Shown: in pieces, positions 2,597-23,695 of the stretch
How the letters are laid out: each line of letters begins with the position of its first letter
Numbering within the stretch: position 1 is the first letter of the stretch
Source of the DNA: Escherichia coli
GTDB lineage: Bacteria > Pseudomonadota > Gammaproteobacteria > Enterobacterales > Enterobacteriaceae
Length of the DNA: 64,000 nucleotides
Assembly: GCF_030013205.1 (NCBI RefSeq)
Contig: NZ_CP122648.1
Strand: one strand, 5' to 3'
Notes under the pieces: generated by a model
Databases searched by the model: none
Told to the model about the DNA's origin: nothing
The model's input: only the letters and a program-made list of their open reading frames with translations
Program-made: the position numbers and the translations under genes

Positions 2597-2896
2597 AAAA
2601 ATTCCTTAATACTGATAACTTGGCGCACTATACACACGTTCCTGAAGAAAGCTATAGTTTTTTGATGGGGTTGAAGATGGCTGGATGTCTAAAATAAACA
2701 TTGCTTCATATGTTCAACTATGCGTTAATGATTGCGTCGGTTTGAAGAACAGACGATATACGAAGTAGTTTACTAAAGCAGTTCTCATTTCAGGTGTTAT
2801 TCACTTATTCCTTCTTTGAGTCTCTCCAATTAAGTACGAAGTCGTTTCTGTTATGCAAACCATTTATGCCGAAAGGCTCAAGTTAAGGAATGTAGA

Positions 2897-3112
2897 ATGT
2901 CAAATAAAATGACTGGTTTAGTAAAATGGTTTAACGCTGATAAAGGTTTCGGCTTTATTTCTCCTGTTGATGGTAGTAAAGATGTGTTTGTGCATTTTTC
3001 TGCGATTCAGAATGATAATTATCGAACCTTATTTGAAGGTCAAAAGGTTACCTTCTCTATAGAGAGTGGTGCTAAAGGTCCTGCAGCAGCAAATGTCATC
3101 ATTACTGATTAA
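2897..3112 (+). CDS. cspB: Cold-shock protein CspB
   Basis: 71 aa [24 protein letters not shown]... with RNP1-like motif (KGFGFI); long upstream leader typical of cold-shock genes. Confidence 0.9.
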
Positions 3113-3393
3113 AATTCATCGCTCGTCTGTATACGATAACGAAGAAGGCTGATGCCTGAGTAGAGATACGGACAGAGTAGTGAATATTGGATCTCTTTAA
3201 TAAAAAGTAAGGAGGTCCAATACATGAAACAATGGCTAGCATATTTGGCAAAATCTTAATCAGGAAAAGTATGCTAACCATTGTGGTGAAGTGCAGGTTT
3301 GCTGAATGAATAGTTTTACAGCAGAAGCTAACTGCTGGCATGGCAAAACAAAGTGCGTAAGTGGATGACTCCCACAAAAAGCACCACAATCTC

Positions 3394-5421: not shown

Positions 5422-5782
5422 GGTAATATTAAATCGGAACATTTACATCGCGGAATGTAAAATTTAAATAAAAAGGACTCTTCCATGAGCCAAAATTCCT
5501 GAAATCTTAAGGGTAAGATAAAAGGTCTTAATCAGAATGACACGTTTTATTAATAAATAAAGCTATTCTTTCATTGCTGTGTTTTTCTTTACAAAAGTAA
5601 TCCTTGCTATGGGTGGTTAATCATGCGTTAATGGTGTTCTGGTTTGTTACAAATTTATCTGAAGCAGTCATTGTTATAATTTTATTATTTGTACCTCTTG
5701 AGATTTCCTTGTTGGTTTTTCTCTCTGATATTTTTTTCGGACCATTCTGCCCAAGGGCTAATTTCTTCAAAAGGTAATAATT

Positions 5783-5995
5783 ATGTCTAACAAAATGACT
5801 GGTTTAGTGAAATGGTTTAACCCTGAAAAAGGTTTTGGTTTCATCACGCCGAAAGATGGCAGCAAAGATGTGTTTGTCCATTTCTCAGCAATTCAGAGCA
5901 ACGATTTCAAAACATTAACTGAGAATCAGGAAGTTGAATTTGGTATTGAGAACGGACCTAAAGGTCCTGCCGCTGTTCATGTAGTGGCGCTTTGA
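5783..5995 (+). CDS. cspI: Cold-shock protein CspI
   Basis: 70 aa [26 protein letters not shown]..., a paralogue of cspB. Confidence 0.9.
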
Positions 5996-6194
5996 GGTAG
6001 ACAATATTACAAACCATATTCACTTTAGATGCCCGTGTTGTCATGGTTCCCAGTATAGAACATCATCTTTTGATGTTTCTGACATGAATCCTTTCGGGGC
6101 AAAATGTATCTTTTGTAAATCAATGATGATTACATTTGATAATATTTCACAATACTTAAATGCCAGCCGTCTGTCGTTGGATTTGAAAAAGTGA
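5985..6194 (+). other. Zinc-ribbon-like open frame (CPCC...CIFC) with no in-frame ATG/GTG/TTG upstream of the first Cys pair; possible pseudogene or unconventional start
   Basis: Frame is open from 5985 to the TGA at 6192-6194; encodes ...RCPCCHGSQYRTSSFDVSDMNPFGAKCIFCKSMMITF...; resembles the zinc-ribbon ORF at 3476..3646; followed by a hairpin plus T-run at about 6199-6226. Confidence 0.3.
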
Positions 6195-11904: not shown

Positions 11905-12479
11905 TGGCATTCAGAATGAGTGAACAACCACGGACCATAAAAATTTATAATCTGCTGGCCGGAACTAATGAATTTATTGGTGAAGGTGATGCATATATTC
12001 CGCCTCATACAGGTCTGCCAGCAAACAGTACCGATATTGCACCGCCAGATATTCCGGCTGGCTTCGTGGCTGTTTTCAACAGTGATGAGTCATCGTGGCA
12101 TCTCGTTGAAGATCATCGGGGTAAAACGGTTTATGACGTGGCTTCCGGCGACGCGTTATTTATTTCTGAACTCGGTCCGTTACCGGAAAATGTTACCTGG
12201 TTATCGCCGGAAGGGGAGTTTCAGAAGTGGAACGGCACAGCCTGGGTGAAGGATACGGAAGCAGAAAAACTGTTCCGGATCCGGGAGGCGGAAGAAACAA
12301 AAAACAACCTGATGCAGGTAGCCAGTGAGCATATTGCGCCGCTTCAGGATGCTGCAGATCTGGAAATCGCAACGGAGGAAGAAATCTCGTTGCTGGAAGC
12401 ATGGAAAAAGTATCGGGTATTGCTGAACCGTGTTGATACGTCAACTGCACAGGATATTGAATGGCCAGCACTGCCGTAG
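11904..12479 (+). CDS. tfaQ: Tail fibre assembly protein (Tfa family)
   Basis: 191 aa; start overlaps the stf stop; conserved Tfa C-terminal region. Confidence 0.8.
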
Positions 12480-12576: not shown

Positions 12577-13167
12577 TTATATGTCAGGTGTCTGAAGTTT
12601 TGCTTTGGCTCTTAAAATGGTTTGCCGCGAGGTTTTGAATTCCCGGGCAATGGCACTTATACTTACACCTGACTTAATTCGTTCGAATACCGCCTGTTTC
12701 TGTTCTTCATTTAACACAGGTGGTCGACCAAAACGTTTCCCTGCGCCGCGGGCACTTACTATCCCGGAATGAGTGCGTTCAAGTAAAAGGTCTCGTTCAA
12801 ATTCAGCGACTGCTGAAATTACTTGCATCATCATTTTTCCTGTTGGACTGGTCAGGTCAATGCCCCCCAATGCTAAGCAATGCACTCTGATACCTGTTTC
12901 GGTCAGTTGTTCCACTGTTTTCCTGATATCCATTGCATTACAACCAAGGCGATCCAGTTTTGTCACAATCAATTGATCACCACATTTCAGGCGAGCAAGC
13001 AACCGGTTAAAACCAGGACGCTCACTGGTTGCTGCTGAGCCGCTAATGTGTTCTTCGATTATTTGCTGAGGTTTGATTTTAAAACCTGCACTTTCGATTT
13101 CCCGGCGTTGATTTTCGGTGGTCTGATCCAGCGTTGATATCCGACAGTAAGCAAAAATTCGAGACAT
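12577..13167 (-). CDS. pinQ: Serine recombinase / DNA invertase (Pin family)
   Basis: 196 aa; N-terminal resolvase catalytic domain (YCRISTLDQ with catalytic Ser) and C-terminal HTH; convergent with tfa. Confidence 0.8.
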
Positions 13168-13483
13168 AGTGAGACTCTATACGAAATTGGTGTTCATATC
13201 ATAATGCATCTCAGAAAATAATTATGATTATTTTTGTGCATATTTGTATGTACACGTTCGAAAATAAACGAATGCGTATGCAACCCCGTAATTTTGGTGA
13301 GACCCAAAATCGATTTTGTGAAAAATGGCTTTAACTCGGTTTGTTTTTCGAGTTCCGGGCGGACTCAAGGAAGAAGAATAGTGTTGCGTGTTATTTTAAC
13401 CAGATTTCAAGTTGTTTGGTCGTGGAAAAGTGGAGCAAAATGTTGTTAAAGTGGAAAAATGATAAAAAAGTAAGTTTATTATA

Positions 13484-13717
13484 TTACATTTTACCATTTA
13501 AATTTTGGTTGTCTTTAAGAACTGATATCGCTGTTTGTAATAATTCTTTGTTATCCAGCCATGATTTTTTCTTTATGTTTCCTTCAATGTAATCAAGCAA
13601 TGTTCTGGTATTGATAGGTCTTCCCTGTTTTGCTACTTCCACTACAGCATCCCCTAGGATAATTCTTACTTCAGGAAGCTGCGCAGGGAACCACTTTAGG
13701 GTGTCTTTTGATTTCAT
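13484..13717 (-). CDS. ydfK: Small prophage protein YdfK-like (77 aa)
   Basis: ORF 13484..13750; internal ATG at 13715-13717 with an AAGGAA Shine-Dalgarno-like sequence gives 77 aa. Confidence 0.55.
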   Translation of the reverse strand: MKSKDTLKWFPAQLPEVRIILGDAVVEVAKQGRPINTRTLLDYIEGNIKKKSWLDNKELLQTAISVLKDNQNLNGKM

Positions 13718-14502
13718 GAAGATATTCCTTAAAATATTATTGATTTTCATTGCGATATTGTATGTCTGATTCAGGATATGTTGACTTATACATCGGTTTT
13801 GTCTGGGTTATTGGATATGCCAATCCCTAATTTTATTAGGGCATGACTAAAAATGCTGAATATGATAAGGAGAGATGTGATTATCAGTATGCTGTTCATA
13901 TAGCCTCGAATTAGTAATGTGTTATATATGATATAGTTGACAATTTTTATCTTGGGTGTTCTTAAAGTTCGTAGATAAACATTGTCGTTTCAGGTATACA
14001 GGAATGCTAACAGGTGGCAGCAAAAATCAGGCGGTTTATGGCGCAAGCTGAAGCGGCAACTGCAAACTATCTTATGCAGAGACTCTACACGGATTGGGTT
14101 TAAAAGTATACATAGATAACAGTTTTTATCTGAAAAAGAAAAATATCAAGGTGATATAGCCTATATGCCTTTGATGCGGAGGAATGAATGTGATGGGAGT
14201 GATGTATCTGAATAGTTGAAAAACCGCAGACACGCCTTATGCAAGAACGTGCTGCGGTTGGCTGGTAAATTTTTCGATAGTGTGAGTATTGAATGATTTC
14301 CAGCCGTTCTTGATTTTACGCATAAATCCATGAAAAAACTACTTATCTGTTGGGGAGTTTTTTTGGGGCATATATGGGACAGAAATAGGCCCCAGATAGA
14401 CACTGAGATCGAACTTAGGATGCTTTTTAAAAAATGCAACTATCTGAAAAAACCTAGAAAACGCCAAGGAAACCACAGGATGGGAAAAAACACCTGTGAA
14501 TT

Positions 14503-15786
14503 ATGGATTTCCAGTTATATTCGCTCGGCGCAGCGTTAGTGTTTCATGAAATATTTTTTCCTGAATCATCAACGGCAATGGCGTTAATTCTGGCAATGGG
14601 AACCTACGGTGCAGGTTATGTGGCGCGTATTGTCGGAGCATTTATTTTCGGCAAAATGGGCGACAGAATCGGGCGTAAAAAAGTGCTCTTTATTACCATC
14701 ACTATGATGGGGATCTGTACTACCTTAATTGGTGTGCTGCCGACCTATGCACAAATTGGTGTGTTTGCGCCAATTTTGCTGGTGACGCTGCGTATTATTC
14801 AGGGGCTGGGGGCAGGCGCGGAAATTTCCGGTGCCGGCACGATGCTGGCGGAATATGCACCAAAAGGTAAGCGCGGAATTATCTCCTCATTTGTTGCTAT
14901 GGGGACTAACTGCGGAACCTTGAGCGCAACGGCAATCTGGGCCTTTATGTTCTTCATTCTCAGTAAAGAGGAACTGCTTGCGTGGGGATGGCGTATACCG
15001 TTCCTGGCGAGCGTTGTCGTGATGGTCTTTGCTATCTGGTTGCGTATGAATCTGAAAGAAAGCCCGGTCTTTGAGAAGGTTAACGACAGCAACCAACCGA
15101 CAGCAAAACCTGCACCTGCTGGTAGCATGTTCCAGAGCAAATCCTTCTGGCTGGCAACAGGGCTGCGTTTTGGTCAGGCTGGTAACTCCGGTTTAATTCA
15201 GACTTTCCTTGCAGGCTATTTAGTGCAGACGTTATTGTTTAACAAAGCAATTCCAACAGATGCATTGATGATCAGTTCGATTCTCGGCTTTATGACCATT
15301 CCGTTCCTTGGTTGGTTATCCGATAAAATAGGTCGCCGGATCCCGTATATTATTATGAATACCTCTGCGATTGTGCTGGCGTGGCCAATGCTTTCTATCA
15401 TCGTAGATAAAAGCTATGCCCCGAGCACCATTATGGTTGCACTGATTGTGATTCATAACTGTGCGGTGCTGGGATTATTTGCTCTGGAAAACATTACCAT
15501 GGCAGAAATGTTCGGCTGTAAAAACCGCTTTACCCGGATGGCGATTTCTAAAGAAATTGGTGGTCTTATCGCTTCCGGTTTTGGTCCTATCCTGGCGGGT
15601 ATTTTCTGCACCATGACGGAATCCTGGTATCCGATCGCCATTATGATCATGGCATATTCAGTGATTGGTTTAATCTCTGCGCTGAAAATGCCAGAAGTGA
15701 GAGACCGTGATTTAAGTGCACTGGAAGATGCCGCGGAAGATCAACCGCGTGTTGTAACAGCTGCGCAACCTTCAAGAAGTCTGTAA
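14503..15786 (+). CDS. ydfJ: MFS metabolite:H+ symporter-family transporter, apparently N-terminally truncated by the prophage insertion
   Basis: 427 aa polytopic membrane protein starting in what looks like the first transmembrane helix (MDFQLYSLGAALVFHEIFFP); an in-frame stop lies immediately upstream; a phage non-coding region precedes it. Confidence 0.7.
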   Translation: MDFQLYSLGAALVFHEIFFPESSTAMALILAMGTYGAGYVARIVGAFIFGKMGDRIGRKKVLFITITMMGICTTLIGVLPTYAQIGVFAPILLVTLRIIQGLGAGAEISGAGTMLAEYAPKGKRGIISSFVAMGTNCGTLSATAIWAFMFFILSKEELLAWGWRIPFLASVVVMVFAIWLRMNLKESPVFEKVNDSNQPTAKPAPAGSMFQSKSFWLATGLRFGQAGNSGLIQTFLAGYLVQTLLFNKAIPTDALMISSILGFMTIPFLGWLSDKIGRRIPYIIMNTSAIVLAWPMLSIIVDKSYAPSTIMVALIVIHNCAVLGLFALENITMAEMFGCKNRFTRMAISKEIGGLIASGFGPILAGIFCTMTESWYPIAIMIMAYSVIGLISALKMPEVRDRDLSALEDAAEDQPRVVTAAQPSRSL

Positions 15787-23381: not shown

Positions 23382-23417
23382 GCTCCGTTTAACATTCATT
23401 GAGAAAACTGATGCTAC

Positions 23418-23524
23418 TGTGTCAACGATCCGTTATCAGTGCAGGAAAATGCCTGTTAGCGTAAAAGCAAAACACAAATCTATCCATGCAAGCATTCACC
23501 GCCGGTTTACTGGCGGTTTTTTTT
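23418..23524 (+). ncRNA. mgrR: Candidate small RNA (MgrR-like), ending at an intrinsic terminator
   Basis: PhoP-box-like direct repeat AGTTTA-N5-CGTTTA at 23375-23391, then an A/T-rich stretch, then a stem (ACCGCCGG / CTGGCGGT) followed by eight T at 23498-23524; no plausible ORF. Position between dgcZ and mgtS matches the recalled mgrR location. Start coordinate is approximate. Confidence 0.4.
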
Positions 23525-23599
23525 CGCCGTCATAAAAATCAGGCCCCTTGTACACAGTTGTAACAAGGGGCCGGTTAGGTGAGGGATTATCTCCGTTCA

Positions 23600-23695
23600 T
23601 TAGTCATCCCATTTGTGGCTGAAATACGCGGCCAGAAAACCAGAAAATAAAATTATTCCCAGTACGGCCATAAAAACATTCATATTACCCAGCAT
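23600..23695 (-). CDS. mgtS: Small membrane protein MgtS (31 aa)
   Basis: Not in the ORF track (below 60 aa); reverse strand reads ATG CTG GGT AAT ATG ... = MLGNMNVFMAVLGIILFSGFLAAYFSHKWDD, with a GGAGG Shine-Dalgarno sequence 7 nt upstream and a downstream hairpin. Confidence 0.8.
   Translation of the reverse strand: MLGNMNVFMAVLGIILFSGFLAAYFSHKWDD

Follow-up and report, generated by a model that had tools for sequence, protein, structure and literature searches.

The 0.8 kb between the cold shock gene ydfK and the host gene ydfJ in this Escherichia coli DNA is very probably the attR-side end of a lambdoid prophage of the Qin/mEp460 type, inserted in ydfJ and made of a row of ordinary modules on the minus strand. 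None of the parts is of a new kind: there are the core and one arm of a lambda-type att site, a predicted intrinsic terminator, the remains of an accessory gene, the gene of a small membrane protein from a family already described, and a promoter followed by a long leader. For K-12, the ynfT gene, the prophage boundary, and the RNA 5′ ends are already public, either in the annotation or in supplements. What is new here is a base-level att map, the reading of a conspicuous hairpin as the orphaned terminator of a dinI-like gene, and a covariation analysis of the family to which that hairpin belongs.

The window, by which we mean the whole stretch of 64,000 nucleotides that was analyzed, is E. 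coli chromosome, 100% identical to strain K_EC180 and 99.6% identical to K-12. It includes one end of a lambdoid prophage of the Qin type, for which the transporter gene ydfJ is the insertion site, and it runs in the reverse orientation with respect to K-12. The 779 nt of interest (13718-14496) lie between the start codon of ydfK (13717) and the ydfJ junction. A previous sequence-only reading described them as an AT-rich, non-coding stretch of about 0.8 kb at the prophage edge with no convincing open reading frame, which could hold the att site, promoters, or an unannotated small RNA. The position and the composition are as described, with a GC content of 36.8% against 47.3% for the window, and only about 4% of the same-size windows are as low. 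The non-coding premise, on the other hand, is wrong because the stretch contains a validated small-protein gene, ynfT, a minus-strand frame of 37 codons that is annotated both in RefSeq and in the curated K-12 record (NC_000913.3). That record has the same genes, and its "cryptic prophage Qin" ends at the equivalent of window positions 14511-14512; it annotates no RNA gene between ynfT and that boundary. The features of the locus are collected in Table 1.

Table 1. Features at the ydfJ-side end of the Qin-type prophage, in window coordinates
Feature	Position	Strand	Basis or detail
pinQ	12577-13167	minus	RefSeq annotation of matching records
ydfK	13484-13717	minus	RefSeq annotation; start codon at 13717
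ynfT-ydfK spacer	13718-13785	minus	predicted Fur-box cluster (~13742); TCAACA-16-TACAAT (13784-13757); ydfK SD AAGGA
ynfT (37 aa)	13786-13899	minus	ORF, RefSeq and K-12 annotation (b4748); SD GAGG at 13907-13904
ynfT 5′ leader (176 nt)	13900-14075	minus	from 5′ end 14075 to ynfT ATG at 13899
ynfT-ydfK promoter block	14076-14158	minus	conservation, published 5′ end; ends at mapped 5′ end 14075
Hairpin B and run of five U, predicted intrinsic terminator	14219-14259 (stem-loop 14222-14259)	minus	fold, covariation
Hairpin A (GGCUGG...CCAGCC), conserved 3′ flank of prophage dinI-like genes	14260-14305	minus	predicted fold and conservation
dinI-like remnant	14339-14371	minus	start codon (14371-14369) and 10 codons; alignment with E2863 prophage
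P arm of attR (of attP in the free phage)	~14351-14500	.	conservation and WTGGGGCA-type repeats
Arm-type repeat TTGGGGCA	14363-14370		P arm
Arm-type repeat ATGGGACA	14374-14381		P arm
Arm-type repeat CTGGGGCC, inverted	14395-14388		P arm
Promoter-like TTGCAT (14439-14434), 16-nt spacer, TAAGTT (14417-14412)	14404-14439	minus	hexamers read from sequence
att core TTATGGATTTC, crossover region, prophage/host junction inside ydfJ	14501-14511	.	junction comparison
Truncated ydfJ	from 14503	plus	RefSeq annotation of matching records

The attachment site and the dinI-like remnant

Alignment with the other end of the prophage, which had been suggested as the way to find the att repeat, produces an 11-bp common core, TTATGGATTTC, present in attR, in attL, and in intact ydfJ. 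The comparison is three-way, and it uses the intact ydfJ of AREA_499, the window, and the integrase-side junction of K_EC180 (core at about 3096-3106 of the junction sequence). Outside of the core, intact ydfJ agrees with the window rightwards only, and with the integrase-side junction leftwards only. The annotated Qin boundary of K-12 falls at the position equivalent to the core, homology to phage mEp460 ends at window position 14514, and the ATG that starts the truncated ydfJ frame (14503) is inside the core. The expectation of an att site within the stretch was right for the P arm, which is inside, and wrong for the core, which starts 5 nt past 14496.

The same arrangement can be observed in free phage. 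In mEp460_ev081, which is 99.7% identical, the order arm, core, arm, int, xis is uninterrupted. More generally, the plaque-forming phages mEp460_ev081, HannyBb, and Tritos carry the whole stretch in the middle of their genomes at 98-99.7% identity, followed directly by the core, the integrase, and the excisionase, that is, by an uninterrupted attP. In the present strain, the far end of the prophage keeps both int and xis intact.

We read the 150 nt before the core as the P arm from the clustering of a motif, the arm-binding domain of the integrase, and a lambda-like spacing. The motif is WTGGGGCA. The three repeats listed in Table 1 are 110-140 bp from the core, and the copies in the P arm include two with one mismatch each; the P′ arm of mEp460 has a tandem of ATGGGGCA and TTGGGGCA, 65-80 bp from the core and inside the 3′ end of int. 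Exact WTGGGGCA occurs three times in 6 kb of mEp460, always within about 140 bp of the core, where 0.5 copies are expected, an enrichment that is indicative only, since we picked the motif with the sequence already in view. Across the whole 64-kb window there is no overall enrichment of WTGGGGCA. The roughly 150 bp beside the core are kept in three different prophages inserted in ydfJ (the Qin type, BKQWHE, and E2863), and the integrase has both an arm-DNA-binding domain (PF12167, 84 bits) and a catalytic tyrosine-recombinase domain (PF00589). The integrase would then probably bind the WTGGGGCA-type repeats of the P arm and, for excision, it would assemble together with Xis on the core and on the P arm. 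The one IHF consensus that we found is in the P′ arm.

One of the two RNA 5′ ends that map to the stretch, at 14404 on the minus strand, is inside the arm. It is backed by 16 reads from one data set (Kim et al. 2012, PMC3415461, supplement file 2). Three 5′ ends are assigned to ydfK or ynaE in that supplement, together with the 51 nt that precede each of them, and it is by locating these upstream sequences that we placed the ends in the window. The 14404 end is preceded by promoter-like hexamers, whose equivalents in the E2863 prophage are TTGTAT and TAATCT; we see no LexA box by eye near this promoter. Presumably, it is the promoter of a former dinI-like gene. When compared to E2863, the window keeps the start codon and first codons (from 14371 downwards) and also the last codons of that gene, and it is missing the 198 bp in between. 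The intact counterpart in E2863 encodes a protein of 80 amino acids that scores 56 bits against Pfam DinI. The BKQWHE prophage shares the 198-bp deletion junction with the window. Membership in the DinI-like family (PF06183) requires an intact frame of about 80 codons, compared with the 10 codons that are left here, and no Pfam family matches the ORFs of the remnant. The module would thus consist of the promoter of an accessory gene sitting inside the att arm, with most of the gene itself gone.

Two other ORFs in this region were considered and set aside, one of 28 amino acids on the minus strand (14237-14323), and one of 69 amino acids on the plus strand that crosses the junction (14330-14539). 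Neither one has a family match, and both are frameshifted in the BKQWHE relative.

The hairpins and their possible roles

The hairpin AACCGCAG...CTGCGGTT, which the sequence-only reading had singled out, is found exactly at 14222-14259. We refer to it as hairpin B. As RNA it is stable on the minus strand, with a folding energy of -20.7 kcal/mol, a z-score of -3.8, and 0 out of 200 shuffles as stable. When folded together with the adjacent hairpin A (141 nt in total), the energy is -34.3 kcal/mol and the z-score is -4.8. On the minus strand, a stem of 12-13 bp is followed by UUUUUC; on the plus strand there is no U-run. A GC-rich stem-loop directly before a U-run is the form of a rho-independent terminator, and transcription is predicted to terminate at 14219, at the U-run of hairpin B. 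The supplements of PMC7815308 include no RNA 3′ ends for the genes of the locus.

Which transcript would such a terminator end? In 2H10, CFT073, 2022H047, O157 Z892, and E2863, hairpins A and B follow an intact dinI-like gene on the same strand, at a distance of about 65 nt; the proteins score between 56 and 71 bits on Pfam DinI. From the gene order of these relatives and the 198-bp deletion in the window, we take hairpin B to be the probable terminator of a dinI-like gene now lost from this prophage. In its present context, hairpin B with its U-run would stop transcripts that start at 14404 or that come from outside. The 3′ flank of the chromosomal dinI gene was considered as a source of the hairpins, and rejected, as the terminator there is unrelated.

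The hairpin belongs to a widespread family. Searching viral contigs for the conserved flank of the hairpin gives more than 120 loci and 78 distinct variants. Among 5,426 complete E. coli genomes, 5,411 have the hairpin region, and the median number of places per genome is about three. There is evidence for conservation of the structure. For 35 distinct sequences, 90.7% of the alignment cells can pair, and 8 of the 12 base pairs have changed on both sides; controls in which the pairing was slid are 24-54% paired. The apical loop CUUGCAUA remains nearly invariant while the stem varies. On the other hand, only about half of the hairpin B variants from other prophages keep a clear U-run, which means that termination may not be the sole role of hairpin B. 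As a minus-strand RNA, this hairpin family appears not to have been described before.

The alternative with most in its favor is that hairpins A and B are mainly a retroregulator similar to lambda sib, and not a plain terminator. Being downstream of int across attP in the phage when it infects or is circular, the hairpins would make the mRNA that reads through from int (and dinI) less stable, and integration would move them to the far end of the prophage, so that int expression would be freed on induction. The topology of mEp460 fits: on the minus strand we find int, the P′ arm, the core, the P arm, and the hairpins, the same as lambda int, attP, and tI/sib. A covarying stem with a nearly invariant loop is also unusual for a simple terminator, and the U-run appears dispensable in many variants. 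However, by reading we see no sequence similarity of the hairpins to lambda sib, and in most relatives the dinI-like gene sits between attP and the hairpins, so the simplest role for the hairpins is that of dinI terminator. Moreover, the position expected of a sib-type element (past attP from int, and split off by integration) is that of the hairpins in mEp460 but not in phage 2H10, whose int gene has the opposite orientation relative to the hairpins; the analogy with tI/sib thus fails for some of the carriers of the hairpin. A sib-type element is also defined by a read-through RNA that is a substrate of RNase III and triggers the decay of int mRNA; folding predicts no extended stem beyond hairpins A and B. 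All considered, we find a mainly sib-like role unlikely. Under the preferred terminator reading, hairpin B would still be, in the circular phage, the first strong terminator downstream of int across attP, which is the tI/sib position in lambda.

A second alternative is that a stable orphan RNA of about 186 nt (from 14404 to about 14219, minus strand) starts from the promoter in the att arm and takes in the dinI remnant and both hairpins, and that hairpin B within it is an undescribed cis-acting RNA element and not a plain terminator. If that were true, hairpin B could serve for sib-like processing, for RNA stability, or for binding a protein, and it could tie the expression of int or dinI to whether the phage is integrated or excised. 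The putative transcript has a folding z-score of -3.8. It is deduced from a single 5′-end data set and a predicted terminator, and it is the only candidate for the unannotated small RNA that had been suggested: in the covariance-model scan that had been recommended, no Rfam family reaches threshold in the stretch, and the gathering-level scan of the whole window reports nothing there either. A small RNA predictor based on RIL-seq data assigns very low probability to the ydfK.5UTR and ynaE nodes, and has no entry that contains ydfJ (PMC8175672). We regard an orphan RNA with such an element as quite unlikely, next to the interpretation of a terminator that has outlived its gene.

The ynfT-ydfK module

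YnfT is a membrane protein of 37 amino acids. It is a single-helix small protein, identical in sequence to Rac YnaM and to the K-12 protein, and its hydropathy profile has one strongly hydrophobic segment (up to 2.5 over 19 residues). It matches in full length both Pfam PF23676 (YnaM), with 96.2 bits for a cut-off of 27, and NCBIfam NF041477, with 63.9 bits for a cut-off of 35. Under the name ynfQ, the chromosomally SPA-tagged protein has been detected, and the gene is listed as positive in a ribosome-profiling screen (PMC6001520). The codon differences within E. coli are 5 synonymous versus 1 non-synonymous, and in a Salmonella-type lineage with only 75% DNA identity, a ynfT homologue also of 37 amino acids is found upstream of a ydfK homologue. 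The homology to this Salmonella-type module ends at 13948-13952, in a motif of 20 nt of which the promoter block has a further copy.

That the stretch could hold promoters is supported, as two published minus-strand 5′ ends (14075 and 14404) are inside of it, and in vitro RNA polymerase binding peaks fall in the same area. At 14075, the read count is 24 for Qin and 113 for Rac, whose copy is distinguished by a SNP (PMC3415461). In an alignment of six lineages (88-100% identical), a nearly invariant block (14158-14078) stops at this 5′ end, and the approximately 100 nt that follow are the most variable part of the alignment. SELEX peaks for the RNA polymerase holoenzyme correspond to window positions around 14073 and 14175 (PMC5493296, PMC3946193). 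The best match to a promoter consensus, TTCAGA-18-TATACT at 14134-14105, predicts a start near 14098 and not at 14075. The 14075 end may then be a processed end, or it may come from a weaker -10, TAGAGT at 14087-14082, which by reading the sequence has the correct spacing. The Cappable-seq supplements (PMC4782308, PMC6131387) and PMC5145812 report nothing for the locus.

In PMC3415461, no 5′ end is reported between ynfT and ydfK, and from this we infer a single ynfT-ydfK transcript. A separate promoter would then produce the 5′ end at 14075, the 176-nt leader, ynfT, and the cold-shock gene ydfK, the last two probably as one message. Promoters closer to the genes were considered and rejected. 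Directly before ydfK, no 5′ end maps to TCAACA-16-TACAAT, and the Salmonella-type lineage does not conserve the -10 of this match; directly before ynfT, there is no acceptable -10/-35 pair near 13900-13960. Just before ydfK, there is a predicted Fur-box cluster with a score of 17.1 bits (K-12 position 1631071; PMC2189734), and the AT-rich spacers around ydfK and ynaE have been flagged as bound by H-NS (PMC3946193).

Any regulatory role of the ynfT leader is putative. A node named ydfK.5UTR appears among the Hfq RIL-seq nodes (PMC8175672 supplement). Because ydfK is annotated as a cold shock protein, and because the levels of ydfK and ynaE increase along with those of the csp genes (PMC7430671), we compared the leader with the cspA thermosensor. 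The proposition is that the leader is a cspA-type RNA thermosensor, and that ynfT-ydfK is cold-inducible post-transcriptionally. The name of ydfK, its csp-like behavior, and the length of the leader are all in agreement with it, and the consensus fold pairs the invariant 5′ end of the leader, CGUGUAGAGUCUC, with the SD and AUG of ynfT. This pairing is uninformative either way because the 5′ end of the leader and the SD/AUG are both invariant. Against the proposition, the Rfam cspA model (RF01766) finds cspB with 159 bits and cspI with 114 bits in this same window, but it does not match the ynfT leader up to an E-value of 10. The local alignment of the leader to csp leaders is no better than that of shuffles, the folding z-score of the leader is -0.69, and 0 of its 39 predicted pairs have a compensatory change. 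In addition, the least conserved part of the leader is its first 100 nt. A thermosensor of the cspA type is therefore a distinctly improbable reading of this leader. Separately, a 14-bp inverted repeat in the leader (13939-13952 / 13973-13986) was examined by reading as an RNA hairpin, and discarded as a conserved structure, because the 88-91% lineage breaks three of its pairs.

With permissive E-values, the Rfam scan of the stretch returns a sub-threshold match to CssrB that covers the hairpin only, and two chance matches. One more reading has a plus-strand small RNA, a relative of Shigella CssrB, ending at the hairpin. CssrB was seen in S. flexneri with a size of about 180 nt (PMC3071730). 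The reading would agree with the well-aligned 3′ hairpin in the weak plus-strand match to Rfam RF02799 (14119-14256), but it has hardly any chance of being correct given a score of 25.3 bits (E = 0.022) against a gathering score of 76, an alignment limited to that hairpin, a plus-strand stem that is followed by GGCUGG and not by a U-run (which is on the minus strand), and the lack of any plus-strand 5′ end reported in PMC3415461; the 3′ end of CssrB was itself set by terminator prediction (PMC3071730).

Could the whole stretch be simply decaying prophage DNA, with no function beyond an att scar? Qin is cryptic in K-12, the dinI-like gene is destroyed, and AT-rich spacers flagged as H-NS-bound surround ydfK and ynaE, all of which speak for this reading. 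But the same sequence is carried by plaque-forming phages, int and xis are intact in the prophage of the present strain, ynfT is both conserved and translated, the stretch has two mapped RNA 5′ ends, and the stem of the hairpin covaries. The published expression data and the conservation seen in this analysis already contradict decay, and we give it next to no credence compared with a functional attR-side prophage end.

The stakes are modest. A false non-coding call has been corrected, and it shows that prophage edges should be screened for short ORFs. The Qin/mEp460 attachment site is now mapped to the base, which helps in engineering or curing the prophage, and a conspicuous hairpin is accounted for as the terminator of a deleted dinI-like gene. 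The residual lead is the family of hairpins with a conserved loop, together with the possible 186-nt RNA.

Comparison with known systems

The leaders of the cspA family (RF01766) resemble the ynfT leader in being long 5′ leaders before a cold-induced gene, here a prophage gene, but there is no match between them in sequence or structure. For CssrB (RF02799), the 3′ hairpin is homologous to hairpin B on the opposite strand, and the rest of the model remains unaligned.

The lambda tI/sib region is, like the one described here, a first strong hairpin with a U-run downstream of int and on the far side of attP, so that integration separates the hairpin from int. The core is about 285 nt away here, compared with about 170 nt for lambda, the hairpins are not similar in sequence, and in most relatives the hairpin terminates a dinI-like gene.

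The attachment site follows lambda closely. Both have a short common core between arms with repeated sites, two or three P-side sites at about 110-140 bp from the core, and tandem P′-side sites at 65-80 bp that overlap the 3′ end of int. In both, the integrase has a separate arm-binding domain, and the excisionase gene adjoins int. The Qin/mEp460 site differs from lambda in its core (TTATGGATTTC, in ydfJ) and in its arm motif (WTGGGGCA), in the absence of a detectable IHF consensus in the P arm, and in an integrase binding that is predicted from sequence. Also unlike lambda, the Qin P arm has a promoter and the start of a dinI-like gene overlapping the arm sites.

The small protein is a member of the YnaM/YnfT family (PF23676, NF041477), with a full-length match above both cut-offs and no difference found. 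Another close relative is the ynaE-ynaM module of the Rac prophage of K-12. Past the hairpin, Rac has its own att region at ttcA/ttcC, and it is without the dinI remnant and the ydfJ-specific arm. Up to 14261, just past hairpin B, where the homology ends, the two prophages are near-identical in ydfK/ynaE, ynfT/ynaM, the leader, the promoter, and hairpin B itself; the mapped 5′ end at 14075 and the predicted Fur cluster are common to both.

The loop of hairpin B and the edge of homology

In hairpin B, the predicted intrinsic terminator of the deleted dinI-like gene, the stem covaries across 35 distinct variants (loci L043-L122) and the apical loop, CUUGCAUA (14238-14245), is nearly invariant. 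Homology from prophage to prophage often stops directly after the hairpin B stem, which suggests that this point is a module boundary or that the hairpin has a sequence-specific role.

RNA families were found elsewhere in the window by Rfam (see the table). The two cspA thermoregulator matches, one ahead of cspB and one ahead of cspI in this prophage, were used as our positive control.

Features of the window, with Rfam scores where reported
Feature	Position	Strand	Remark
cspA thermoregulator (Rfam)	2736-3128	plus	above gathering score
cspA thermoregulator (Rfam)	5638-6022	plus	above gathering score
IS009 (Rfam)	12247-12445	plus	222 bits; overlaps tfaQ 3′ end
20-nt direct repeat AGATAAAAAYTGTYAWCTAT, ynfT-proximal copy	13952-13933	minus
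20-nt direct repeat AGATAAAAAYTGTYAWCTAT, promoter copy	14131-14112	minus
Truncated ydfJ ORF, 427 aa	14503 onwards	plus	ATG start inside att core
STnc560 (Rfam)	23393-23606	plus	280 bits; host part of window

A direct repeat upstream of ynfT

The repeat AGATAAAAAYTGTYAWCTAT could be a binding site for a regulator. One copy lies within the promoter block, upstream of the published RNA 5′ end at 14075. The second precedes the ATG of ynfT by 45 nt and sits at the very position where the homology to the ynfT-ydfK module of the Salmonella type starts. In the Salmonella-type viral contig L026, two ORFs (1143-1753) are found upstream of the ynfT homologue: one of 133 aa is lipoprotein-like, and one of 70 aa is similar to the C-terminal half of YdfK. 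This arrangement suggests that the module has been duplicated or expanded in that lineage.

On the other side of ydfK, the spacer to pinQ contains a GC-rich inverted repeat, GAGTTCCGGGCGGACTC (approximately 13330-13370). A published 5′ end is located 24 nt upstream of pinQ.

The junction and the state of the prophage

The start ATG of the truncated ydfJ corresponds to an internal methionine codon of the intact gene (...LEFMDFQLY). The ydfJ fragment is annotated as a protein-coding gene in K-12, whereas PGAP calls it a pseudogene.

In strain K_EC180 the opposite end of this prophage (L006, 3143-4709) has intact integrase and excisionase genes, unlike the Qin prophage of K-12. Given these genes, and the 99.7% identity over the end studied here to the plaque-forming phage mEp460, the prophage may still be excisable.
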